Positions 163 through 13,066 of a DNA stretch of 13,066 nucleotides are shown one piece after another. Source of the DNA: a virus (Duplodnaviria; Heunggongvirae; Uroviricota; Caudoviricetes); the IMG/VR virus record IMGVR_UViG_2698536339_000001. One strand, 5' to 3'. A program made the position numbers and the translations under genes. The notes beneath the pieces were generated by a model. The model searched no databases. It worked only from the letters and a program-made list of their open reading frames with translations, and was not told the origin of the DNA. How positions within the stretch are numbered: position 1 is the stretch's first letter; the number at the start of each line of letters is the position of its first letter.

Positions 163-1462
163 TCTCCCGCATATTGCCAGCATGGCTTTTAATGAGCCGC
201 TGATGCTTGAACCCGCCTATGCGCGGGTTTTCTTTTGTGCGCTTGCAGGCCAGCTTGGGATCAGTCGCCTGACGGATGCAGTATCCGGCGACAGCCTGAC
301 TGCCGGAGAGGCACCCGCGGCGCTGGCGTTATCCGGTGATGATGACGGACCACGACAGGCCCGCAGTTATCAGGTCATGAACGGCATCGCCGTGCTGCCG
401 GTGTCCGGTACGCTGGTCAGCCGGACGCGGGCGCTGCAGCCGTATTCGGGAATGACCGGTTACAACGGCATTATCGCCCGTCTGCAACAGGCTGCCAGCG
501 ATCCGATGGTGGACGGCATTCTGCTCGATATGGACACACCGGGCGGGATGGTGGCGGGAGCATTTGACTGTGCTGACATCATCGCCCGTGTGCGTGACAT
601 AAAGCCGGTATGGGCGCTGGCCAACGACATGAACTGCAGTGCAGGTCAGCTGCTTGCCAGCGCCGCCTCCCGGCGTCTGGTCACGCAGACCGCCCGGACA
701 GGCTCCATCGGCGTCATGATGGCTCACAGTAATTACGGCGCTGCGCTGGAGAAACAGGGCGTGGAAATCACGCTGATTTACAGCGGCAGCCATAAGGTGG
801 ATGGCAACCCCTACAGCCATCTACCGGGTGATGTCCGGGAGACACTGCAGTCCCGGATGGATGCAACCCGCCGGATGTTTGCGCAGAAGGTGTCGGCATA
901 TACCGGCCTGTCCGTGCAGGCTGTGCTGGATACCGAGGCTGCAGTGTACAGCGGTCAGGAGGCCATTGATGCCGGACTGGCTGATGAACTTGTCAACAGC
1001 ACCGATGCGATCACCGTTATGCGTGATGCACTGGATGCACGTAAATCCCGTCTCTCAGGAGGGCGAATGACCAAAGAGACTCAATCAACAACTGTTTCAG
1101 CCACTGCTTCGCAGGCTGACGTTACTGACGTGGTGCAAGCGACGGAGGGCGAAAACGCCAGCGCGGCGCAGCCGGACGTGAACGCGCAGATCACCGCTGC
1201 GGTTGCGGCAGAAAACAGCCGCATTATGGGGATCCTCAACTGTGAGGAAGCTCACGGACGCGAAGAACAGGCACGTGTGCTGGCCGAAACCCCCGGTATG
1301 ACCGTGGAAACGGCCCGCCGCATTCTGGCCGCAGCACCACAGAGTGCACAGGCGCGCAGTGACACTGCGCTGGATCGTCTGATGCAGGGGGCACCGGCAC
1401 CACTGGCTGCAGGTAACCCGGCATCTGATGCCGTTAACGATTTGCTGAACACACCAGTGTAA
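143..1462 (+). CDS. C: Head maturation protease / scaffold, lambda gpC-like (peptidase S49 family)
   Basis: GTG start at 143 preceded by AGGAGGAG (131-138); 439 codons ending TAA at 1462. The protein (VTAELRNLPHIASMAFNEPLML...NDLLNTPV) is recognised as lambda gpC. The in-frame extension back to position 8 in the ORF track is the overlapping 3' end of B read in another frame. Confidence 0.85.
   Translation: MTAELRNLPHIASMAFNEPLMLEPAYARVFFCALAGQLGISRLTDAVSGDSLTAGEAPAALALSGDDDGPRQARSYQVMNGIAVLPVSGTLVSRTRALQPYSGMTGYNGIIARLQQAASDPMVDGILLDMDTPGGMVAGAFDCADIIARVRDIKPVWALANDMNCSAGQLLASAASRRLVTQTARTGSIGVMMAHSNYGAALEKQGVEITLIYSGSHKVDGNPYSHLPGDVRETLQSRMDATRRMFAQKVSAYTGLSVQAVLDTEAAVYSGQEAIDAGLADELVNSTDAITVMRDALDARKSRLSGGRMTKETQSTTVSATASQADVTDVVQATEGENASAAQPDVNAQITAAVAAENSRIMGILNCEEAHGREEQARVLAETPGMTVETARRILAAAPQSAQARSDTALDRLMQGAPAPLAAGNPASDAVNDLLNTPV
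857..1462 (+). CDS. nu3: Capsid scaffolding protein Nu3, in-frame internal start nested in C
   Basis: In-frame ATG at 857 (MDATRRMFAQKVS...) gives a 606-nt ORF sharing the C stop, matching the known nested C/Nu3 arrangement of lambda. The start is placed by homology only. Confidence 0.6.
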   Translation: MDATRRMFAQKVSAYTGLSVQAVLDTEAAVYSGQEAIDAGLADELVNSTDAITVMRDALDARKSRLSGGRMTKETQSTTVSATASQADVTDVVQATEGENASAAQPDVNAQITAAVAAENSRIMGILNCEEAHGREEQARVLAETPGMTVETARRILAAAPQSAQARSDTALDRLMQGAPAPLAAGNPASDAVNDLLNTPV

Positions 1463-1471
1463 GGGATGTTT

Positions 1472-1804
1472 ATGACGAGCAAAGAAACCTTTACCCATTA
1501 CCAGCCGCTGGGCAACAGTGACCCGGCACATACGGCAACCGCGCCCGGCGGATTGAGTGCGAAAGCGCCTGCAATGACCCCGCTGATGCTGGACACCTCC
1601 ACCCGTAAGCTGGTTGCGTGGGATGGCACCACCGACGGTACTGCCGTTGGCATTCTGGCGGTTGATGCTGACCAGACCAGCACCACGCTGACGTTCTACA
1701 AGTCCGGCACGTTCCGTTATGAGGATGTGCTCTGGCCGGAGGCTGCCAGCGACGAGACGAAAAAACGGACCGCGTTTGCCGGAACGGCAATCAGCATCGT
1801 TTAA
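1472..1804 (+). CDS. D: Head decoration protein gpD
   Basis: ATG at 1472 preceded by AAGGGA; 110 aa ([27 protein letters not shown]...GTAISIV), stop TAA 1802-1804. Recognised as lambda gpD. The ORF-track start at 1466 is two codons upstream of the likely start. Confidence 0.9.
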
Positions 1805-1824
1805 CCTTACCCTTCATCACTAAA

Positions 1825-1846
1825 GGCCGCCTGTGCGGCTTTTTTT
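1825..1846 (+). terminator. GC-rich hairpin plus T7 tract in the D-E intergenic region (terminator-like or RNA-stability element)
   Basis: GGCCGC (1825-1830), loop CTGT, GCGGC (1835-1839), then TTTTTTT (1840-1846). The stem is only 5-6 bp, so this is a weak intrinsic terminator at best. Confidence 0.4.
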
Positions 1847-2856
1847 ACGGGATTTTTTTATGTCGATGTACACAACCGCCCAGCTGCTGGCGGCAAATGA
1901 GCAGAAATTTAAGTTTGATCCGCTGTTTCTGCGTCTCTTTTTCCGTGAGAGCTATCCCTTCACCACGGAGAAAGTCTATCTCTCACAAATTCCGGGACTG
2001 GTAAACATGGCGCTGTACGTTTCGCCGATTGTTTCCGGTGAGGTTATCCGTTCCCGTGGCGGCTCCACCTCTGAATTTACGCCGGGATATGTCAAACCCA
2101 AGCATGAGGTGAATCCGCAGATGACCCTGCGTCGCCTGCCGGATGAAGATCCGCAGAATCTGGCGGACCCGGCTTACCGCCGCCGTCGCATCATCATGCA
2201 GAACATGCGTGACGAAGAGCTGGCCATTGCTCAGGTCGAAGAGATGCAGGCAGTTTCTGCCGTGCTCAAGGGCAAATACACCATGACCGGTGAAGCCTTC
2301 GATCCGGTTGAGGTGGATATGGGCCGCAGTGCGGCGAACAACATCACATTTTTTACGGGATTTTTTTATGTCGATGTACACAACCGCCCAGCTGCTGGCG
2401 GCAAATGAGCAGAAATTTAAGTTTGATCCGCTGTTTCTGCGTCTCTTTTTCCGTGAGAGCTATCCCTTCACCACGGAGAAAGTCTATCTCTCACAAATTC
2501 CGGGACTGGTAAACATGGCGCTGTACGTTTCGCCGATTGTTTCCGGTGAGGTTATCCGTTCCCGTGGCGGCTCCACCTCTGAATTTACGCCGGGATATGT
2601 CAAACCCAAGCATGAAGTGAATCCGCAGATGACCCTGCGTCGCCTGCCGGATGAAGATCCGCAGAATCTGGCGGACCCGGCTTACCGCCGCCGTCGCATC
2701 ATCATGCAGAACATGCGAGACGAAGAGCTGGCCATTGCTCAGGTCGAAGAGATGCAGGCAGTTTCTGCTGTGCTTAAGGGCAAATACACCATGACCGGTG
2801 AAGCCTTCGATCCGGTTGAGGTGGATATGGGCCGCAGTGCGGCGAACAACATCACA
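1841..2856 (+). repeat. Direct tandem duplication, 2 x 508 bp (copy 1 1841-2348, copy 2 2349-2856), of the E leader and E codons 1-163
   Basis: Seen directly: the sequence from TTTTTTACGGGATTTTTTTATGTCGATGTACACAACC to GGCGAACAACATCACA occurs twice head-to-tail at an offset of 508 nt. The copies are 504/508 identical, differing at 2108/2616 (G/A), 2210/2718 (T/A), 2261/2769 (C/T) and 2267/2775 (C/T). The novel junction is ...AACATCACA|TTTTTTACGGG... at 2348|2349. Confidence 0.9.
1860..2408 (+). pseudogene. Truncated duplicate of major capsid gene E (E'): E residues 1-163 fused to a 19-codon out-of-frame tail
   Basis: ATG at 1860 with the same leader as E. Translation is identical to the full-length E N-terminus (MSMYTTAQLLAANEQKFKFDPLFLRLFFRESYPF...VDMGRSAANNIT), then crosses the duplication junction in the +1 frame (FFTGFFYVDVHNRPAAGGK) and stops at TAA 2406-2408. 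Because 508 is not a multiple of 3, the duplication necessarily frameshifts. Confidence 0.8.
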
Positions 2857-3393
2857 CAGTCCGGTGGTACGGAGTGGAGCAAGCGTGACAAGTCCACGTA
2901 TGACCCGACCGACGATATCGAAGCCTATGCGCTGAACGCCAGCGGCGTGGTGAATATCATCGTGTTTGATCCGAAAGGCTGGGCGCTGTTCCGTTCCTTC
3001 AAAGCCGTCAAGGAGAAGCTGGATACCCGTCGCGGCTCTCATTCCGAGCTGGAGACAGCGGTAAAAGACCTGGGCGAAGCGGTGTCCTATAAGGGGATGT
3101 ATGGCGATACGGCGATCGTCGTGTATTCCGGACAGTACGTGGAAAACGGCGTCAAAAAGAACTTCCTGCCGGACAACACGATGGTGCTGGGTAACACTCA
3201 TGCACGCGGTCTGCGCACCTATGGCTGTATTCAGGATGCGGATGCATTGAGTGAGGGTATTAATGCGTCTCCCCGTTATCCGAAAAACTGGAAGACATCC
3301 GGCGATCCGGCGCGAGAGTTCACCATGATTCAGTCAGCACCGCTGATGCTGCTGGCTGATCCTGATGCGTTCGTGTCCGTACAACTGGCGTAA
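2368..3393 (+). CDS. E: Major capsid protein gpE (HK97-fold), intact copy
   Basis: ATG at 2368; 341 aa (MSMYTTAQLL...DAFVSVQLA), stop TAA 3391-3393. Length and sequence are as recalled for lambda gpE. The ORF-track extension back to 2290 is an artefact of the duplication, being copy-1 E sequence read in another frame. Confidence 0.9.
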   Translation: MSMYTTAQLLAANEQKFKFDPLFLRLFFRESYPFTTEKVYLSQIPGLVNMALYVSPIVSGEVIRSRGGSTSEFTPGYVKPKHEVNPQMTLRRLPDEDPQNLADPAYRRRRIIMQNMRDEELAIAQVEEMQAVSAVLKGKYTMTGEAFDPVEVDMGRSAANNITQSGGTEWSKRDKSTYDPTDDIEAYALNASGVVNIIVFDPKGWALFRSFKAVKEKLDTRRGSHSELETAVKDLGEAVSYKGMYGDTAIVVYSGQYVENGVKKNFLPDNTMVLGNTHARGLRTYGCIQDADALSEGINASPRYPKNWKTSGDPAREFTMIQSAPLMLLADPDAFVSVQLA

Positions 3394-3434
3394 TCATGGC
3401 CCTTCGGGGCCATTTTCTCTCTGTGGAGGAGTCC

Positions 3435-3830
3435 ATGACGAAAGATGAACTGATTGCCCGTCTTCAGGTGCTGGGTGAGCAACTGAACCGTGATGTCAGC
3501 CTGATGGGGACGAAAGAAGAACTGGTGCTCCGTGTGGCAGAGCTGGAAGAGGAGCTTGATGACACGGATGACGCTGCCGGTCAGGACACATCTGTCAGCC
3601 CGGAAAATGCGCTGACCGGACATGAAAATGAGGTGGTATCAGCGCAGCCGGATACCGTGACTGATACGGCTACTCTGGTCACGGTTGTGGCACTGGTGAC
3701 GCTGCATACCGATGCACTTCACGCCACGCGGGATGAACCTGTGGCATTTGTGCTGCCGGGAACGGCGTTTCGTGTCTCTGCCGGTGTGGCAGCCGAAATG
3801 ACAGAGCGCGGCCTGGCCAGAATGCAATAA
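3435..3830 (+). CDS. FI: DNA-packaging / head completion protein gpFI
   Basis: GGAGGA (3425-3430) then ATG at 3435 after a 4-nt spacer. The protein (MTKDELIARLQVLGEQLNRDVSL...ERGLARMQ) is recognised as lambda gpFI. The upstream in-frame ATG at 3396 has no ribosome-binding site and is rejected. Confidence 0.85.
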   Translation: MTKDELIARLQVLGEQLNRDVSLMGTKEELVLRVAELEEELDDTDDAAGQDTSVSPENALTGHENEVVSAQPDTVTDTATLVTVVALVTLHTDALHATRDEPVAFVLPGTAFRVSAGVAAEMTERGLARMQ

Positions 3831-3841
3831 CGGGAGGCGCT

Positions 3842-4195
3842 GTGGCTGATTTCGATAACCTGTTCGATGCTGCCATTGTCCGCGCCGATGAAACGATACG
3901 CGGGTACATGGGAACGTCAGCCACCATGACATCCGGTGAGCAGTCCGGCGCAGTAATACGTGGTGTTTTTGATGACCCTGAAAATATCAGCTATGCCGGA
4001 CAGGGCGTGCGCGTTGAAGGCTCCAGCCCGTCCCTGTTTGTCCGGACTGATGATGTGCGGCAGCTGCGGCGTGGAGACAGGCTGACCATCGGTGAGGAAA
4101 ACTTCTGGATAGACCGGGTTTCGCCGGATGATGGTGGAAGCTGTCATCTCTGGCTTGGGCGGGGCGTACCGCCTGCCGTTAACCGTCGCCGCTGA
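3842..4195 (+). CDS. FII: Head-tail joining protein gpFII
   Basis: GTG start at 3842 preceded by GGGAGG; 117 aa (ADFDNLFDAAIVRADETIRGYMG...), stop TGA 4193-4195. Same length as lambda gpFII. Confidence 0.85.
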   Translation: MADFDNLFDAAIVRADETIRGYMGTSATMTSGEQSGAVIRGVFDDPENISYAGQGVRVEGSSPSLFVRTDDVRQLRRGDRLTIGEENFWIDRVSPDDGGSCHLWLGRGVPPAVNRRR

Positions 4196-4207
4196 AAGGG
4201 GGGATGT

Positions 4208-4786
4208 ATGGCCATAAAAGGTCTTGAGCAGGCCATTGAAAACCTCAGCCGTATCAGCAAAACGGCGGTGCCTGGTGCCGCCGCAATGGCCATTAACCGC
4301 GTTGCGTCATCCGCGATATCGCAGTCGGCGTCACAGGTTGCCCGTGAGACAAAGGTACGCCGGAAACTGGTAAAGGAAAGGGCCAGGCTGAAAAGGGCCA
4401 CGGTCAAAAATCCGCAGGCCAGAATCAAAGTTAACCGGGGGGATTTGCCCGTAATCAAGCTGGGTAATGCGCGGGTTGTCCTTTCGCGCCGCAGGCGTCG
4501 TAAAAAGGGGCAGCGTTCATCCCTGAAAGGTGGCGGCAGCGTGCTTGTGGTGGGTAACCGTCGTATTCCCGGCGCGTTTATTCAGCAACTGAAAAATGGC
4601 CGGTGGCATGTCATGCAGCGTGTGGCCGGGAAAAACCGTTACCCCATTGATGTGGTGAAAATCCCGATGGCGGTGCCGCTGACCACGGCGTTTAAACAAA
4701 ATATTGAGCGGATACGGCGTGAACGTCTTCCGAAAGAGCTGGGCTATGCGCTGCAGCATCAACTGAGAATGGTAATAAAGCGATGA
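4208..4786 (+). CDS. Z: Tail completion protein gpZ
   Basis: AAGGGGGG (4196-4203) then ATG at 4208; 192 aa basic protein (MAIKGLEQAIENLSRISK...). The stop overlaps the U start (ATGA at 4783-4786). Confidence 0.85.
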   Translation: MAIKGLEQAIENLSRISKTAVPGAAAMAINRVASSAISQSASQVARETKVRRKLVKERARLKRATVKNPQARIKVNRGDLPVIKLGNARVVLSRRRRRKKGQRSSLKGGGSVLVVGNRRIPGAFIQQLKNGRWHVMQRVAGKNRYPIDVVKIPMAVPLTTAFKQNIERIRRERLPKELGYALQHQLRMVIKR

Positions 4787-5178
4787 AACATACTGAACTC
4801 CGTGCAGCCGTACTGGATGCACTGGAGAAGCATGACACCGGGGCGACGCTTTTTGATGGTCGCCCCGCTGTTTTTGATGAGGCGGATTTTCCGGCAGTTG
4901 CCGTTTATCTCACCGGCGCTGAATACACGGGCGAAGAGCTGGACAGTGATACCTGGCAGGCGGAGCTGCATATTGAAGTTTTCCTGCCTGCTCAGGTGCC
5001 GGATTCAGAGCTGGATTCGTGGATGGAGTCCCGGATTTATCCGGTGATGAGCGATATCCCGGCACTGTCAGATTTGATCACCAGTATGGTGGCCAGCGGC
5101 TATGACTACCGGCGCGACGATGATGCGGGCCTGTGGAGTTCAGCCGATCTGACTTATGTCATTACCTATGAAATGTGA
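4783..5178 (+). CDS. U: Tail terminator protein gpU
   Basis: ATG at 4783 overlapping the Z stop; 131 aa ([20 protein letters not shown]...ITYEM). Same length as lambda gpU. Confidence 0.85.
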
Positions 5179-5185
5179 GGACGCT

Positions 5186-5926
5186 ATGCCTGTACCAAAT
5201 CCTACAATGCCGGTGAAAGGTGCCGGGACCACCCTGTGGGTTTATAAGGGGAGCGGTGACCCTTATGCGAATCCGCTTTCAGACGTTGACTGGTCGCGTC
5301 TGGCAAAAGTTAAAGACCTGACGCCCGGCGAACTGACCGCTGAGTCCTATGACGACAGCTATCTCGATGATGAAGATGCAGACTGGAATGCGACCGGGCA
5401 GGGGCAGAAATCTGCCGGAGATACCAGCTTCACGCTGGCGTGGATGCCCGGAGAGCAGGGGCAGCAGGCGCTGCTGGCGTGGTTTAATGAAGGCGATACC
5501 CGTGCCTATAAAATCCGCTTCCCGAACGGCACGGTCGATGTGTTCCGTGGCTGGGTCAGCAGTATCGGTAAGGCGGTGACGGCGAAGGAAGTGATCACCC
5601 GCACGGTGAAAGTCACCAATGTGGGACGTCCGTCGATGGCAGAAGATCGCAGCATGGTAACAGCGGCAACCGGCATGACCGTGACGCCTGCCAGCACCTC
5701 GGTGGTGAAAGGGCAGAGCACCACGCTGACCGTGGCCTTCCAGCCGGAGGGCGTAACCGACAAGAGCTTTCGTGCGGTGTCTGCGGATAAAACAAAAGCC
5801 ACCGTGTCGGTCAGTGGTATGACCATCACCGTGAACGGCGTTGCTGCAGGCAAGGTCAACATTCCGGTTGTATCCGGTAATGGTGAGTTTGCTGCGGTTG
5901 CAGAAATTACCGTCACCGCCAGTTAA
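5186..5926 (+). CDS. V: Major tail tube protein gpV, with C-terminal Ig-like (Big_2-type) domain
   Basis: GAGGA (5177-5181) then ATG at 5186 after a 4-nt spacer; 246 aa ([22 protein letters not shown]...EITVTAS). The ORF-track start at 5156 lies inside U and is rejected. The Ig-like C-terminal domain assignment is from established knowledge of gpV. Confidence 0.9.
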
Positions 5927-5941
5927 TCCGGGGAGTCAGCG

Positions 5942-6364
5942 ATGTTCCTGAAAACCGAATCATTTGAACATAACGGTGTGACCGTCACGCTTTCTGAACT
6001 GTCAGCCCTGCAGCGCATTGAGCATCTCGCCCTGATGAAACGGCAGGCAGAACAGGCGGAGTCAGACAGCAACCGGAAGTTTACTGTGGAAGACGCCATC
6101 AGAACCGGCGCGTTTCTGGTGGCGATGTCCCTGTGGCATAACCATCCGCAGAAGACGCAGATGCCGTCCATGAATGAAGCCGTTAAACAGATTGAGCAGG
6201 AAGTGCTTACCACCTGGCCCACGGAGGCAATTTCTCATGCTGAAAACGTGGTGTACCGGCTGTCTGGTATGTATGAGTTTGTGGTGAATAATGCCCCTGA
6301 ACAGACAGAGGACGCCGGGCCCGCAGAGCCTGTTTCTGCGGGAAAGTGTTCGACGGTGAGCTGA
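5942..6364 (+). CDS. G: Tail assembly chaperone gpG
   Basis: ATG at 5942; 140 aa (MFLKTESFEHNGVTVTLSEL...SAGKCSTVS), stop TGA 6362-6364. Contains the slippery heptamer near its 3' end. Confidence 0.85.
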   Translation: MFLKTESFEHNGVTVTLSELSALQRIEHLALMKRQAEQAESDSNRKFTVEDAIRTGAFLVAMSLWHNHPQKTQMPSMNEAVKQIEQEVLTTWPTEAISHAENVVYRLSGMYEFVVNNAPEQTEDAGPAEPVSAGKCSTVS

Positions 6365-6780
6365 GTTTTGCCCTGAAACTGGCGCGTGAGATGGGGCGAC
6401 CCGACTGGCGTGCCATGCTTGCCGGGATGTCATCCACGGAGTATGCCGACTGGCACCGCTTTTACAGTACCCATTATTTTCATGATGTTCTGCTGGATAT
6501 GCACTTTTCCGGGCTGACGTACACCGTGCTCAGCCTGTTTTTCAGCGATCCGGATATGCATCCGCTGGATTTCAGTCTGCTGAACCGGCGCGAGGCTGAC
6601 GAAGAGCCTGAAGATGATGTGCTGATGCAGAAAGCGGCAGGGCTTGCCGGAGGTGTCCGCTTTGGCCCGGACGGGAATGAAGTTATCCCCGCTTCCCCGG
6701 ATGTGGCGGACATGACGGAGGATGACGTAATGCTGATGACAGTATCAGAAGGGATCGCAGGAGGAGTCCGGTATGGCTGA
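5942..6780 (+). CDS. T: Tail assembly chaperone gpGT, the -1 frameshift fusion product (G frame 5942-6346, T frame 6346-6780)
   Basis: After the slip, reading continues VFDGELSFALKLAREMGRPDWRAMLAGMSS...GIAGGVRYG, stopping at TGA 6778-6780, which overlaps the H start. No independent start or ribosome-binding site exists for the T frame. Confidence 0.8.
6340..6346 (+). promoter_or_regulatory. Programmed -1 ribosomal frameshift slippery heptamer G GGA AAG (G to GT)
   Basis: GGGAAAG at 6340-6346 sits in the G zero frame as G|GGA|AAG, 6 codons before the G stop. The -1 frame is open from 6346 to 6780. This is the classic lambda G/GT arrangement (established knowledge). Confidence 0.85.
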
Positions 6781-9334
6781 ACCGGTAGGCGATCTGGTCG
6801 TTGATTTAAGTCTGGATGCGGCCAGATTTGACGAGCAGATGGCCAGAGTCAGGCGTCATTTTTCCGGTACGGAAAGTGATGCGAAAAAAACAGCGGCAGT
6901 CGTTGAACAGTCGCTGAGCCGACAGGCGCTGGCTGCACAGAAAGCGGGGATTTCCGTCGGGCAGTATAAAGCCGCCATGCGTATGCTGCCTGCACAGTTC
7001 ACCGACGTGGCCACGCAGCTTGCAGGCGGGCAAAGTCCGTGGCTGATCCTGCTGCAACAGGGGGGGCAGGTGAAGGACTCCTTCGGCGGGATGATCCCCA
7101 TGTTCAGGGGGCTTGCCGGTGCGATCACCCTGCCGATGGTGGGGGCCACCTCGCTGGCGGTGGCGACCGGTGCGCTGGCGTATGCCTGGTATCAGGGCAA
7201 CTCAACCCTGTCCGATTTCAACAAAACGCTGGTCCTTTCCGGCAATCAGGCGGGACTGACGGCAGATCGTATGCTGGTCCTGTCCAGAGCCGGGCAGGCG
7301 GCAGGGCTGACGTTTAACCAGACCAGCGAGTCACTCAGCGCACTGGTTAAGGCGGGGGTAAGCGGTGAGGCTCAGATTGCGTCCATCAGCCAGAGTGTGG
7401 CGCGTTTCTCCTCTGCATCCGGCGTGGAGGTGGACAAGGTCGCTGAAGCCTTCGGGAAGCTGACCACAGACCCGACGTCGGGGCTGACGGCGATGGCACG
7501 CCAGTTCCATAACGTGACGGCGGAGCAGATTGCGTATGTTGCTCAGTTGCAGCGTTCCGGCGATGAAGCCGGGGCATTGCAGGCGGCGAACGAGGCCGCA
7601 ACGAAAGGGTTTGATGACCAGACCCGCCGCCTGAAAGAGAACATGGGCACGCTGGAGACCTGGGCAGACAGGACTGCGCGGGCCTTCAAATCCATGTGGG
7701 ATGCGGTGCTGGATATTGGTCGTCCTGATACCGCGCAGGAGATGCTGATTAAGGCAGAGGCTGCGTTTAAGAAAGCAGACGACATCTGGAATCTGCGCAA
7801 GGATGATTATTTTGTTAACGATGAAGCGCGGGCGCGTTACTGGGATGATCGTGAAAAGGCCCGTCTTGCGCTTGAAGCCGCCCGAAAGAAGGCTGAGCAG
7901 CAGAGTCAACAGGACAAAAATGCGCAGCAGCAGAGCGATACCGAAGCGTCACGGCTGAAATATACCGAAGAGGCGCAGAAGGCTTACGAACGGCTGCAGA
8001 CGCCGCTGGAGAAATATACCGCCCGTCAGGAAGAACTGAACAAGGCACTGAAAGACGGGAAAATCCTGCAGGCGGATTACAACACGCTGATGGCGGCGGC
8101 GAAAAAGGATTATGAAGCGACGCTGAAAAAGCCGAAACAGTCCGGCGTGAAGGTGTCTGCGGGCGATCGTCAGGAAGACAGTGCTCATGCTGCCCTGCTG
8201 ACGCTTCAGGCAGAACTCCGGACGCTGGAGAAGCATGCCGGAGCAAATGAGAAAATCAGCCAGCAGCGCCGGGATTTGTGGAAGGCGGAGAGTCAGTTCG
8301 CGGTACTGGAGGAGGCGGCGCAACGTCGCCAGCTGTCTGCACAGGAGAAATCCCTGCTGGCGCATAAAGATGAGACGCTGGAGTACAAACGCCAGCTGGC
8401 TGCACTTGGCGACAAGGTTACGTATCAGGAGCGCCTGAACGCGCTGGCGCAGCAGGCGGATAAATTCGCACAGCAGCAACGGGCAAAACGGGCCGCCATT
8501 GATGCGAAAAGCCGGGGGCTGACTGACCGGCAGGCAGAACGGGAAGCCACGGAACAGCGCCTGAAGGAACAGTATGGCGATAATCCGCTGGCGCTGAATA
8601 ACATCATGTCAGAGCAGAAAAAGACCTGGGCGGCTGAAGACCAGCTTCGCGGGAACTGGATGGCAGGCCTGAAGTCCGGCTGGAGTGAGTGGGAAGAGAG
8701 CGCCACGGACAGTATGTCGCAGGTAAAAAGTGCAGCCACGCAGACCTTTGATGGTATTGCACAGAATATGGCGGCGATGCTGACCGGCAGTGAGCAGAAC
8801 TGGCGCAGCTTCACCCGTTCCGTGCTGTCCATGATGACAGAAATTCTGCTTAAGCAGGCAATGGTGGGGATTGTCGGGAGTATCGGCAGCGCCATTGGCG
8901 GTGCTGCCAGTGGCGGCGCATCCGCGTCAGGCGGTACAGCCATTCAGGCCGCTGCGGCGAAATTCCATTTTGCAACCGGAGGATTTACGGGAACCGGCGG
9001 CAAATATGAGCCAGCGGGGATTGTTCACCGTGGTGAATTTGTCTTCACGAAGGAGGCAACCAGCCGGATTGGCGTGGGGAATCTTTACCGGCTGATGCGC
9101 GGCTATGCCACCGGCGGTTATGTCGGTACACCGGGCAGCATGGCGGACAGTCGGTCGCAGGCGTCCGGGACGTTTGAGCAGAATAACCATGTGGTGATTA
9201 ACAACGACGGCACGAACGGTCAGATAGGTCCGGCTGCTCTGAAGGCGGTGTATGACATGGCCCGCAAGGGTGCCCGTGATGAAATTCAGACACAGATGCG
9301 TGATGGTGGCCTGTTCTCCGGAGGTGGACGATGA
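6773..9334 (+). CDS. H: Tail tape measure protein gpH
   Basis: GGAGGA upstream then ATG at 6773; 853 aa, largely alpha-helical and charged (long Q/A/K/E-rich stretches) with a Gly/Ala/Ser-rich C-terminal segment. Same length as lambda gpH; the stop overlaps the M start (ATGA). Confidence 0.9.
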   Translation: MAEPVGDLVVDLSLDAARFDEQMARVRRHFSGTESDAKKTAAVVEQSLSRQALAAQKAGISVGQYKAAMRMLPAQFTDVATQLAGGQSPWLILLQQGGQVKDSFGGMIPMFRGLAGAITLPMVGATSLAVATGALAYAWYQGNSTLSDFNKTLVLSGNQAGLTADRMLVLSRAGQAAGLTFNQTSESLSALVKAGVSGEAQIASISQSVARFSSASGVEVDKVAEAFGKLTTDPTSGLTAMARQFHNVTAEQIAYVAQLQRSGDEAGALQAANEAATKGFDDQTRRLKENMGTLETWADRTARAFKSMWDAVLDIGRPDTAQEMLIKAEAAFKKADDIWNLRKDDYFVNDEARARYWDDREKARLALEAARKKAEQQSQQDKNAQQQSDTEASRLKYTEEAQKAYERLQTPLEKYTARQEELNKALKDGKILQADYNTLMAAAKKDYEATLKKPKQSGVKVSAGDRQEDSAHAALLTLQAELRTLEKHAGANEKISQQRRDLWKAESQFAVLEEAAQRRQLSAQEKSLLAHKDETLEYKRQLAALGDKVTYQERLNALAQQADKFAQQQRAKRAAIDAKSRGLTDRQAEREATEQRLKEQYGDNPLALNNIMSEQKKTWAAEDQLRGNWMAGLKSGWSEWEESATDSMSQVKSAATQTFDGIAQNMAAMLTGSEQNWRSFTRSVLSMMTEILLKQAMVGIVGSIGSAIGGAASGGASASGGTAIQAAAAKFHFATGGFTGTGGKYEPAGIVHRGEFVFTKEATSRIGVGNLYRLMRGYATGGYVGTPGSMADSRSQASGTFEQNNHVVINNDGTNGQIGPAALKAVYDMARKGARDEIQTQMRDGGLFSGGGR

Positions 9335-9660
9335 AGACCTTCCGCTGGAAAGTGAAACCCGGTATGGATGTGGCTTCGGTCCCTTCTGTAAGAAAGGTGC
9401 GCTTTGGTGATGGCTATTCTCAGCGAGCGCCTGCCGGGCTGAATGCCGACCTGAAAACGTACAGCGTGACGCTTTCTGTCCCCCGTGAGGAGGCCACGGT
9501 ACTGGAGTCGTTTCTGGAAGAGCACGGGGGCTGGAAATCCTTTCTGTGGACGCCGCCTTATGAGTGGCGGCAGATAAAGGTGACCTGCGCAAAATGGTCG
9601 TCGCGGGTCAGTATGTTGCGTGTTGAGTTCAGCGCAGAGTTTGAACAGGTGGTGAACTGA
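9331..9660 (+). CDS. M: Tail tip assembly protein gpM
   Basis: ATG at 9331 overlapping the H stop; 109 aa (MKTFRWKVKPGMDVASVPSVRKVRFGDGYSQ...). Confidence 0.85.
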   Translation: MKTFRWKVKPGMDVASVPSVRKVRFGDGYSQRAPAGLNADLKTYSVTLSVPREEATVLESFLEEHGGWKSFLWTPPYEWRQIKVTCAKWSSRVSMLRVEFSAEFEQVVN

Positions 9661-10358
9661 TGCAGGATATCCGGCAGGAAACACTGAATGAATGCACCCG
9701 TGCGGAGCAGTCGGCCAGCGTGGTGCTCTGGGAAATCGACCTGACAGAGGTCGGTGGAGAACGTTATTTTTTCTGTAATGAGCAGAACGAAAAAGGTGAG
9801 CCGGTCACCTGGCAGGGGCGACAGTATCAGCCGTATCCCATTCAGGGGAGCGGTTTTGAACTGAATGGCAAAGGCACCAGTACGCGCCCCACGCTGACGG
9901 TTTCTAACCTGTACGGTATGGTCACCGGGATGGCGGAAGATATGCAGAGTCTGGTCGGCGGAACGGTGGTCCGGCGTAAGGTTTACGCCCGTTTTCTGGA
10001 TGCGGTGAACTTCGTCAACGGAAACAGTTACGCCGATCCGGAGCAGGAGGTGATCAGCCGCTGGCGCATTGAGCAGTGCAGCGAACTGAGCGCGGTGAGT
10101 GCCTCCTTTGTACTGTCCACGCCGACGGAAACGGATGGCGCTGTTTTTCCGGGACGTATCATGCTGGCCAACACCTGCACCTGGACCTATCGCGGTGACG
10201 AGTGCGGTTATAGCGGTCCGGCTGTCGCGGATGAATATGACCAGCCGACGTCCGATATCACGAAGGATAAATGCAGCAAATGCCTGAGCGGTTGTAAGTT
10301 CCGCAATAACGTCGGCAACTTTGGCGGCTTCCTTTCCATTAACAAACTTTCGCAGTAA
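9660..10358 (+). CDS. L: Tail tip protein gpL (Cys-rich C-terminus, Fe-S cluster-binding family)
   Basis: ATG at 9660 overlapping the M stop by 1 nt (TGATG); 232 aa. Cys residues are clustered at the C-terminus (NTCTWTYRGDECGYSG...DKCSKCLSGCKF). gpL-family proteins are reported to coordinate an iron-sulfur cluster (established knowledge). Confidence 0.85.
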   Translation: MQDIRQETLNECTRAEQSASVVLWEIDLTEVGGERYFFCNEQNEKGEPVTWQGRQYQPYPIQGSGFELNGKGTSTRPTLTVSNLYGMVTGMAEDMQSLVGGTVVRRKVYARFLDAVNFVNGNSYADPEQEVISRWRIEQCSELSAVSASFVLSTPTETDGAVFPGRIMLANTCTWTYRGDECGYSGPAVADEYDQPTSDITKDKCSKCLSGCKFRNNVGNFGGFLSINKLSQ

Positions 10359-10363
10359 ATCCC

Positions 10364-11107
10364 ATGACACAGACAGAATCAGCGATTCTGGCGCACGCCC
10401 GGCGATGTGCGCCAGCGGAGTCGTGCGGCTTCGTGGTAAGCACGCCGGAGGGGGAAAGATATTTTCCCTGCGTGAATATCTCCGGTGAGCCGGAGGCGTA
10501 TTTCCGTATGTCGCCGGAAGACTGGCTGCAGGCAGAAATGCAGGGTGAGATTGTGGCGCTGGTCCACAGCCACCCCGGTGGTCTGCCCTGGCTGAGTGAG
10601 GCCGACCGGCGGCTGCAGGTGCAGAGTGATTTGCCGTGGTGGCTGGTCTGCCGGGGGACGATTCATAAGTTCCGCTGTGTGCCGCATCTCACCGGGCGGC
10701 GCTTTGAGCACGGTGTGACGGACTGTTACACACTGTTCCGGGATGCTTATCATCTGGCGGGGATTGAGATGCCGGACTTTTATCGTGAGGATGACTGGTG
10801 GCGTCACGGTCAGAATCTCTATCTGGATAATCTGGAGGCGACGGGGCTGTATCAGGTGCCGTTGTCAGCGGCACAGCCGGGCGATGTGCTGCTGTGCTGT
10901 TTTGGTTCATCGGTGCCGAATCACGCCGCAATTTACTGCGGCGACGGCGAGCTGCTGCACCATATTCCTGAACAACTGAGCAAACGAGAGAGGTACACCG
11001 ACAAATGGCAGCGACGCACACACTCCCTCTGGCGTCACCGGGCATGGCGCGCATCTGCCTTTACGGGGATTTACAACGATTTGGTCGCCGCATCGACCTT
11101 CGTGTGA
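10364..11107 (+). CDS. K: Tail tip assembly protein gpK, with MPN/JAMM-like and NlpC/P60-like domains
   Basis: Longest ORF starts at ATG 10364 (247 aa); the classical lambda annotation corresponds to the internal ATG at 10508 (MSPEDWLQAEMQ..., 199 aa). A JAMM-type motif (EIVALVHSHPGGLPWLSEAD) and NlpC/P60-like Cys/His candidates (GVTDCYTLF ... NHAAIYCGDGELLHHIP) are visible. The choice of start is uncertain. Confidence 0.75.
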   Translation: MTQTESAILAHARRCAPAESCGFVVSTPEGERYFPCVNISGEPEAYFRMSPEDWLQAEMQGEIVALVHSHPGGLPWLSEADRRLQVQSDLPWWLVCRGTIHKFRCVPHLTGRRFEHGVTDCYTLFRDAYHLAGIEMPDFYREDDWWRHGQNLYLDNLEATGLYQVPLSAAQPGDVLLCCFGSSVPNHAAIYCGDGELLHHIPEQLSKRERYTDKWQRRTHSLWRHRAWRASAFTGIYNDLVAASTFV

Positions 11108-11676
11108 AAACGGGGGCTGAAGCCATCCGGGCACTGGCCACACAGCTCCCGGCGTTTCGTCAGAAACTGAGCGACGGCTGGTATCAGGTACGGATTGCCG
11201 GGCGGGACGTCAGCACGTCCGGGTTAACGGCTCAGTTACATGAGACTCTGCCTGATGGCGCTGTGATTCATATTGTTCCCAGAGTCGCCGGGGCCAAGTC
11301 AGGTGGCGTATTCCAGATTGTCCTGGGGGCTGCCGCCATTGCCGGATCATTCTTTACCGCCGGAGCCACCCTTGCAGCATGGGGGGCAGCCATTGGGGCC
11401 GGTGGTATGACCGGCATCCTGTTTTCTCTCGGTGCCAGTATGGTGCTCGGTGGTGTGGCGCAGATGCTGGCACCGAAAGCCAGAACTCCCCGTACACAGA
11501 CAACGGATAACGGTAAGCAGAACACCTATTTCTCCTCACTGGATAACATGGTTGCCCAGGGCAATGTTCTGCCTGTTCTGTACGGGGAAATGCGCGTGGG
11601 GTCACGCGTGGTTTCTCAGGAGATCAGCACGGCAGACGAAGGGGATGGTGGTCAGGTTGTGGTGATTGGTCGCTGA
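11005..11676 (+). CDS. I: Tail tip assembly protein gpI (C-terminal hydrophobic Gly/Ala-rich segment)
   Basis: ATG at 11005, overlapping the 3' end of K by 103 nt in another frame; 223 aa (MAATHTLPLASPGMARICLYGDLQRFG...VVVIGR). The segment GVFQIVLGAAAIAGSFFTAGATLAAWGAAIGAGGMTGILFSLGASMVLGGV looks membrane-like. Same length as lambda gpI. Confidence 0.85.
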   Translation: MAATHTLPLASPGMARICLYGDLQRFGRRIDLRVKTGAEAIRALATQLPAFRQKLSDGWYQVRIAGRDVSTSGLTAQLHETLPDGAVIHIVPRVAGAKSGGVFQIVLGAAAIAGSFFTAGATLAAWGAAIGAGGMTGILFSLGASMVLGGVAQMLAPKARTPRTQTTDNGKQNTYFSSLDNMVAQGNVLPVLYGEMRVGSRVVSQEISTADEGDGGQVVVIGR

Positions 11677-11694
11677 TGAAAAACGTTTATGTGA

Positions 11695-11716
11695 AACCGC
11701 CTCCGGGCGGTTTTGT
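11695..11716 (+). terminator. Hairpin plus short T tract in the I-J intergenic region (possible attenuator or RNA structure)
   Basis: AACCGCC (11695-11701), loop TCCG, GGCGGTT (11706-11712), followed by TTGTCGTTT. The 7-bp stem has 5 GC pairs; the T tract is interrupted, so termination efficiency is doubtful. Confidence 0.35.
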
Positions 11717-11735
11717 CGTTTATGGAGCGTGAGGA

Positions 11736-13066
11736 ATGGGTAAAGGCAGCAGTAAGGGGCATACTCCGCGCGAAGCGAAGGACAACCTGAAGTCCACGCA
11801 GTTGCTGAGTGTGATCGATGCCATCAGCGAAGGGCCGATTGAAGGTCCGGTGGATGGATTAAAAAGCGTGCTGCTGAACAGTACGCCAGTGCTGGACAGT
11901 GAGGGGAATACCAACATCTCCGGCGTCACGGTGGTGTTCCGGGCCGGTGAGCAGGAGCAGACACCGCCGGAGGGATTTGAATCCTCCGGCTCCGAGACGG
12001 TGCTGGGTACGGAAGTGAAATACGACACGCCGATCACCCGGACCATCACGTCGGCAAACATTGACCGACTGCGCTTTACCTTCGGCGTGCAGGCACTGGT
12101 GGAAACCACCTCAAAGGGGGACAGGAATCCGTCGGAAGTCCGCCTGCTGGTTCAGATACAGCGTAATGGTGGCTGGGTGACGGAAAAAGACATCACCATT
12201 AAGGGCAAAACCACCTCGCAGTATCTGGCCTCGGTGGTGGTGGGTAACCTGCCGCCGCGCCCGTTCAGTATACGGATGCGCAGGATGACGCCGGACAGCA
12301 CCACAGACCAGCTGCAGAACAAAACGCTCTGGTCGTCATACACCGAAATCATCGATGTGAAACAGTGCTACCCGAACACGGCACTGGTCGGTGTGCAGGT
12401 GGACTCGGAGCAGTTCGGCAGCCAGCAGGTGAGCCGTAATTATCATCTGCGCGGGCGTATTCTGCAGGTGCCGTCGAACTATAACCCGCAGACGCGGCAA
12501 TACAGCGGTATCTGGGACGGAACGTTTAAACCGGCATACAGCAACAACATGGCCTGGTGTCTGTGGGATATGCTGACCCATCCGCGCTACGGCATGGGGA
12601 AACGTCTTGGTGCGGCGGATGTGGATAAATGGGCGCTGTATGTCATCGGCCAGAATTGCGACCAGTCGGTGCCGGACGGCTTTGGCGGCACGGAGCCGCG
12701 CATCACCTGTAATGCCTGGCTGACCACACAGCGCAAGGCGTGGGATGTGCTCAGTGATTTCTGCTCGGCGATGCGCTGTATGCCGATATGGAACGGGCAG
12801 ACGCTGACGTTCGTGCAGGACCGACCATCAGATAAGGTGTGGACCTATAACCGCAGTAATGTGGTGATGCCGGATGATGGCGCGCCGTTCCGCTACAGCT
12901 TCAGCGCCCTGAAGGACCGCCATAATGCCGTTGAGGTGAACTGGATTGACCCGGATAACGGCTGGGAGACGGCGACAGAGCTTGTGGAGGACACGCAGGC
13001 CATTGCCCGTTACGGTCGTAACGTCACGAAGATGGATGCCTTTGGCTGTACCAGCCGGGGGCAGGC
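11736..13066 (+). CDS. J: Central tail fibre / host-specificity protein gpJ, N-terminal part (3'-partial at window edge)
   Basis: ATG at 11736 preceded by GAGGA; the ORF is open to the end of the window (MGKGSSKGHTPREAKDNLKSTQLLSVIDAISEGPIEGPVDGLKS...). Recognised as the lambda gpJ N-terminus. Confidence 0.9.
   Translation, partial: MGKGSSKGHTPREAKDNLKSTQLLSVIDAISEGPIEGPVDGLKSVLLNSTPVLDSEGNTNISGVTVVFRAGEQEQTPPEGFESSGSETVLGTEVKYDTPITRTITSANIDRLRFTFGVQALVETTSKGDRNPSEVRLLVQIQRNGGWVTEKDITIKGKTTSQYLASVVVGNLPPRPFSIRMRRMTPDSTTDQLQNKTLWSSYTEIIDVKQCYPNTALVGVQVDSEQFGSQQVSRNYHLRGRILQVPSNYNPQTRQYSGIWDGTFKPAYSNNMAWCLWDMLTHPRYGMGKRLGAADVDKWALYVIGQNCDQSVPDGFGGTEPRITCNAWLTTQRKAWDVLSDFCSAMRCMPIWNGQTLTFVQDRPSDKVWTYNRSNVVMPDDGAPFRYSFSALKDRHNAVEVNWIDPDNGWETATELVEDTQAIARYGRNVTKMDAFGCTSRGQ

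Follow-up and report, generated by a model that had tools for sequence, protein, structure and literature searches.

The 508-nt tandem repeat that truncates and restarts the major capsid protein gene in this prophage contig is very probably an assembly artefact built from two near-identical prophages in one E. coli genome, and not a biological duplication. From the sequences compared, we place the probability of this reading at about 0.88. The two prophages are hereafter named R, which is the prophage represented by the contig, and Q, a second lambdoid prophage. Three independent sets of positions are predicted by the map of variant sites between R and Q: the four differences between the two copies of the repeat, both boundaries of the repeat, and the last base of the contig.

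A tandem repeat in the capsid gene of a draft contig

The window, that is, the whole stretch of 13,066 nt that was analysed, is the entire contig CYEZ01000049.1 of the draft E. coli assembly GCA_001285445.1, which is unfinished and was built automatically. Both ends of the window fall inside prophage genes. Over its full length, it is 98.2% identical to phage lambda and contains a lambda-type morphogenesis module in the order C/Nu3-D-E-FI-FII-Z-U-V-G-T-H-M-L-K-I-start of J (Table 1). The downstream E ORF is full-length, belongs to the capsid family PF03864 and has D (PF02924) and FI (PF14000) as neighbours; the E gene is 97-99% identical to the E genes of 80 viral contigs. The terminator-like hairpin in the D-E spacer has a folding energy of -12.4 kcal/mol (z = -2.3). 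Further downstream, on the + strand, the heptamer GGGAAAG at 6340-6346 lies where gene G (5942-6364) is about to end and the T frame (6346-6780) starts, and it corresponds to the canonical lambda G/GT -1 frameshift site. Another GGGAAAG, at 10452, is no more than expected by chance.

Table 1 Features of the 13,066-nt window around the repeat and downstream of it. A slash marks the join; R and Q are the two prophages defined in the text.
Feature	Position	Strand	Description
Head decoration protein gene D	1472..1804	+	PF02924; directly upstream; R-type throughout
Terminator-like hairpin and T-run, D-E spacer	1822..1846	+	AAAGGCCGC-CTGT-GCGGCTTT
Copy 1 of the 508-nt repeat	1841..2348	+	Last 19 nt of the D-E spacer and E codons 1-163
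Truncated E' ORF	1860..2408	+	163 E residues and a 19-aa out-of-frame tail; CTZ26132.1
Join between the copies	2348..2349	.	...AACATCACA / TTTTTTACGGG; preceding bases also given as ...CATCACA / TTTTTTACGGG
Sequence across the join			...GCGAACAACATCACATTTTTTACGGGATTT...
Copy 2 of the 508-nt repeat	2349..2856	+	Starts with the six T's common to the T7 (R) and T6 (Q) spacers
Intact major capsid protein gene E	2368..3393	+	341 aa, Pfam PF03864 Phage_cap_E
Tail module, end of FI to start of J	3649..13066	+	R and Q identical base for base in E. coli ESBL 15

When the window was compared with a copy of itself shifted by 508 nt, the two copies of the repeat were seen to lie head to tail and to mismatch at only four positions: 2108/2616, 2210/2718, 2261/2769 and 2267/2775. 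Similarity ends at the repeat edges, with 1840 differing from 2348 and 2349 differing from 2857. In the frame set by the ATG at 1860 (copy 1) or 2368 (copy 2), the four differences are all silent and all at third codon positions (copy 1/copy 2: GAG/GAA for Glu83, CGT/CGA for Arg117, GCC/GCT for Ala134 and CTC/CTT for Leu136), and the 163 duplicated codons have the same translation in both copies. Silent changes make up 23.5% of the possible single-base changes in the duplicated codons, and four silent changes out of four are expected by chance with P = 0.003. Therefore, the pattern is not that of random decay.

A sequence-only reading of this DNA had listed the same four positions, had described all of them as silent in the correct frame and had argued that random decay of a dead fragment was unlikely. 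All three statements hold, and random decay is eliminated, given the P value above and the finding, described below, that every one of the four is a known allele. Replication slippage is also eliminated, the copies being non-identical and the join having no microhomology between 2348 and 2349. The contig record contains no N at this point, which counts against a join made by assembly. Because 508 is not a multiple of 3, copy 1 runs out of frame past the join: its ORF gains 19 out-of-frame residues and stops at 2408, for a total of 182 aa. The intact E gene starts in copy 2, not in copy 1.

In the related sequences, the interval is present once. For positions 1700-3000 (1301 nt), the phage and E. 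coli matches listed span 793 nt, which is 1301 minus 508. Similarly, among the matches listed, finished genomes at 99.8-100% identity match the whole window over 12,558 nt, again 508 fewer. When a single-copy version of the window is compared with NZ_CP148746.1, one SNP is found; with NZ_CP041678.1 (strain ESBL 15), there are two. All lie outside the repeat. At position 13055, located 11 nt from the contig end, the window has a C, and both R and Q of the relatives have a T; apart from the repeat, nothing else separates the window from the closest finished genome. A strain SNP, an error near the contig end or the allele of a third prophage could each account for the C.

The join was searched for directly. 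A 30-mer spanning it has no exact match in 185,579 species-representative genomes, none in the IMG/VR viral contigs and none in the JGI metagenome contigs. With a 120-nt junction query against finished E. coli genomes, only split matches in two pieces were obtained among the matches listed. The read-through protein CTZ26132.1, annotated as 'phage major head protein', is recorded on one contig only. No other protein among 5.8 billion covers its out-of-frame tail peptide, a weak indication, as short contigs are rarely annotated there. The contig record gives two samples for CYEZ01000049.1, and the second may be the same assembly under another source.

Alleles and variant sites of two prophages that co-reside in finished relatives

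Six finished genomes carry R at at least 99.8% identity to the window. A search with a Q-type region showed that five of the six (ESBL 15, 19AR0254, MB06102, 22-250 and 22-245) carry a Q-like prophage elsewhere on the chromosome, and the Q region was read in four of these five. In ESBL 15, where R and Q are ~1.8 Mb apart, they differ at 61 sites, all of which are in the head region (265-3140 in single-copy coordinates, about 2.9 kb). The three other genomes read have the same pattern of R/Q variants, and the divergence between R and Q in the head genes is about 2%. Near the repeat, the ESBL 15 variants are located at 1806, 1840 (T7/T6), 1964, 2108, 2210, 2261, 2267, 2348, 2357 and 2360. From single-copy position 3141 to 12,558, corresponding to 3649-13066 in the window, R and Q of ESBL 15 are identical, and the first difference is found at 12,559. 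This 9,418-bp tail module shows zero differences between the two loci of the strain (L082 6141-15558 versus L084).

Position 1964 deserves separate mention. The Q prophages of the four genomes read have a T there, and neither copy in the window does; the natural alleles L001 and L006 are also without this variant. Four silent sites separate R from Q in the interval bounded by the 1840 indel and the 2348 SNP, or five if Q has the 1964 variant. If the Q of the source strain lacks it, the longest exact match between R and Q in the head region is 267 nt (1841-2107); with the variant, as in the Q alleles of the finished genomes, this match splits into 123 and 143 nt.

To place the two copies among natural sequences, 82 E alleles were tabulated, from 80 viral contigs and from the R prophages of the two closest finished genomes. 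The four sites at which the copies differ are common polymorphisms in this set. At 2108, 2210, 2261 and 2267, the R allele, that of the closest single-copy relative, reads G,A,T,T, and the Q allele, represented for instance by L001, reads A,T,C,C. Within the repeated interval, L001 differs from R at exactly these four sites. At the edges of the interval, Q has T6 and not T7 in the D-E spacer, and G and not A at 2348. In the T-run at 1840-1846, T6 is present in 7 of the 82 natural alleles, and T7 in most.

The haplotype of copy 1 is G,T,C,C (R,Q,Q,Q); that of copy 2, A,A,T,T (Q,R,R,R), is absent from the 82 alleles tabulated. At each of the four sites, one copy carries the R base and the other the Q base; the copies are reciprocal mosaics of R and Q. 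Each of them is R-type at the sites nearest to its own unique flank (2108 for copy 1, 2718-2775 for copy 2) and Q-type further in. Outside the repeat, all of the ~56 R/Q sites in the contig are R-type. On this sequence evidence, the four differences did not arise as new mutations in the repeat; they are silent polymorphisms that already exist between two lambdoid E alleles found in nature. The proposal of the earlier reading that two slightly diverged E alleles are involved is thereby confirmed, all four being R/Q differences found among natural E genes.

The boundaries of the repeat follow the same map. On the left, the boundary is the T7/T6 indel at 1840: the repeat edge is the first base common to R and Q after this indel, and copy 2 opens with exactly the shared T's. 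On the right, the boundary is the A/G SNP at 2348. For a random duplication in the head region, the probability that both ends fall on variant sites is about 0.0016. The contig itself ends with ...GGGGGCAGGC, in gene J; immediately beyond it, R continues with G and Q with A, so that the contig stops at an exact R/Q branch point. Breakpoints of a duplication have no biological reason to track the polymorphisms of another locus; the ends of assembly-graph paths do.

In ESBL 15, the corresponding branch position is 15558/15559 in L082 and about 24198 in L084. Position 1 of the contig coincides with no R/Q variant site of ESBL 15, which counts against the assembly reading; it falls inside a 639-nt stretch over which R and Q are the same in this strain. 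The left end may have been set by a third lambdoid prophage. The E region has matches at three places in ESBL 15.

A probable false join and its alternatives

A scheme with two assembly paths would account for the repeat. Path 1 would have been extended rightward from R-specific sequence through the segment shared with Q and would have halted where R and Q re-diverge, at 2347/2348. Path 2 would have been extended leftward from R-specific sequence and would have halted at the T-run indel, at 1841. Each path would stay in the R phase near its anchor and slip onto Q variants further in, a loss of phase with distance that would be expected for extension from a unique anchor into a two-copy segment. 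Read pairs would then have ordered path 1 before path 2, the 508-nt overlap with its four mismatches would have been left unmerged, and the pieces would have been concatenated or a minimal gap 'closed'. A weak point of this scheme is that copy 1 has the R base at 2348 as its last base; path 1 would have had to be extended by one more base, or a gap of one base filled. As for 1964, either the Q prophage of the source strain would be without the T, like L001 and L006, or both paths would have taken the R base. A strict model, in which each arm of a bubble is used once, was set aside as not required; the Q prophages of the relatives have the 1964 variant that is missing from both copies.

Such a scheme would fit the tools of the time. 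Velvet followed by SSPACE and GapFiller was in use in bacterial Illumina pipelines of the period, and those who used them describe these steps as greedy and prone to false joins (PMC5320598). GapFiller adds single bases and breaks off where the overhang becomes ambiguous ('allelic') (PMC3446322); R/Q variant sites are exactly where such a stop would fall. In other assemblies, it is well documented that two divergent alleles can be falsely duplicated and linked by gaps or by incorrect gap filling (PMC9516828). For the exact software step that would have made the join, we infer an SSPACE/GapFiller scenario from the published descriptions of these tools. The presence of Q in the source strain is suggested by the finished relatives and by the end of the contig.

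This part of E appears to break in other assemblies too. Clustering at 90% identity places the read-through protein in a group of 382 members, of which those listed are mostly 'partial' N-terminal E fragments of 164-186 aa. These fragments come from the ends of contigs in other drafts of E. coli and Shigella, a 166-aa form being found on 174 contigs. The frequency of such fragments at contig ends therefore identifies this part of E as a recurrent breakpoint of short-read assembly. The breakpoint, at nt ~490-555 of E, is probably a common mosaic boundary between co-resident prophages.

The rival that deserves most discussion is a genuine 508-bp tandem duplication in R, by illegitimate recombination or template switching at the hairpin and T-run, followed by two conversion tracts from Q (2210-2267 in copy 1; 2616 in copy 2). 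The sequence is contiguous in the deposited contig, and the left breakpoint adjoins a stable hairpin and T-run, where replication could stall. Moreover, co-resident lambdoid prophages do exchange sequence, as the identity of the R and Q tails over 9.4 kb in ESBL 15 indicates, and the prophage could stay viable with its downstream E intact. However, this history needs three independent rare events, two of them at complementary sites, and it leaves the position of both breakpoints on R/Q variant sites unexplained. The junction is without microhomology, and conversion to Q is seen nowhere else in the 13 kb, where all other R/Q sites are R-type. The join has no second occurrence in any collection searched, being absent from the related finished genomes listed, from the viral contigs and from the metagenome contigs, and the differences are not random but all match alleles of another prophage. 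We regard a genuine duplication as improbable. If it were real, a 182-aa N-terminal capsid fragment would be expressed beside intact gpE, and the contig would be a snapshot of a duplication and of conversion between prophages, possibly with a fragment that interferes with capsid assembly.

Two other origins involve a second allele from outside R. In a mixed sample, through contamination or mixed culture, two strains with one allele each could have been stitched together by the assembler, and the graph topology would be the same as for two prophages in one genome. This seems very improbable and is unnecessary, given that R and Q occur on one chromosome in 5 of the 6 closest finished genomes, with matching variant sites; a mixed sample, too, would make the duplication an artefact. 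A single unequal, non-homologous crossover between two lambdoid genomes, with one copy from each parent, had been the first suggestion of the sequence-only reading. It would explain why the four differences are natural silent allele differences, and both alleles do co-occur in related genomes. However, such an event predicts copies that are whole alleles, with one flank left Q-type. Neither copy has a parental haplotype, A,A,T,T being found in none of the 82 alleles, and both flanks are R-type at the ~56 sites. The crossover is contradicted by the mosaic haplotypes and by the R-type flanks, and we give it next to no credence.

The alternative offered in the same reading, in which reads from two related prophages were merged during assembly, is the one that the data support. 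The window is a whole draft contig, the join was found nowhere else in the collections searched, the copies differ at R/Q sites only, and the boundaries of the repeat coincide with branch points between R and Q.

Comparison with known duplications and meaning for the prophage

The repeat resembles the false 'heterotype' duplications described by Ko et al. 2022 (PMC9516828), in which two divergent versions of a locus are retained and placed next to each other. As in these, all differences between the copies fall on allelic sites that existed beforehand, the annotation gains a spurious gene fragment, and the join is an assembly gap or a wrongly filled gap. Unlike these, the two versions here are paralogous prophages in a haploid bacterium, the copies are phase-switched mosaics, and no gap was left. 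The repeat is also similar to the collapsed or misresolved prophage repeats of short-read E. coli drafts in that the break, here at the contig end, occurs where co-resident lambdoid prophages converge or diverge. Contig breaks inside E close to codons 164-186 are found in hundreds of other drafts. The usual outcome there is a contig break or a collapsed consensus, whereas the shared segment is written here twice in tandem.

Genuine partial tandem gene duplications in phages share the head-to-tail arrangement and the combination of one truncated and one intact gene. However, fresh duplications have identical copies and breakpoints unrelated to another locus; here, Q alleles are present and the breakpoints fall on Q variant sites. 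With respect to the gpE/gpD module of phage lambda, the gene order, the length of E (341 aa) and the family (PF03864) are the same, and once the repeat is removed there is no biological difference.

Overall, the duplication is in all likelihood not a real feature of the genome. Both the deposited protein CTZ26132.1, corresponding to the truncated E', and the apparent duplication of the capsid gene are most likely products of assembly and should be treated with caution. Differences that are 'only synonymous' can mimic selection on two functional copies; in the present case, they are better read as paralogous alleles stitched together. The boundaries of a repeat and the differences between its copies can be checked, with no need for reads, against the sites at which a co-resident paralogue differs in finished relatives, and other doubtful duplications in draft assemblies could be examined in the same way. 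The actual biology of the region is nothing unusual for E. coli: co-resident lambdoid prophages with identical 9.4-kb tails and heads that diverge by ~2%. Identical tail modules together with divergent heads suggest a recent module exchange or gene conversion between the co-resident prophages.
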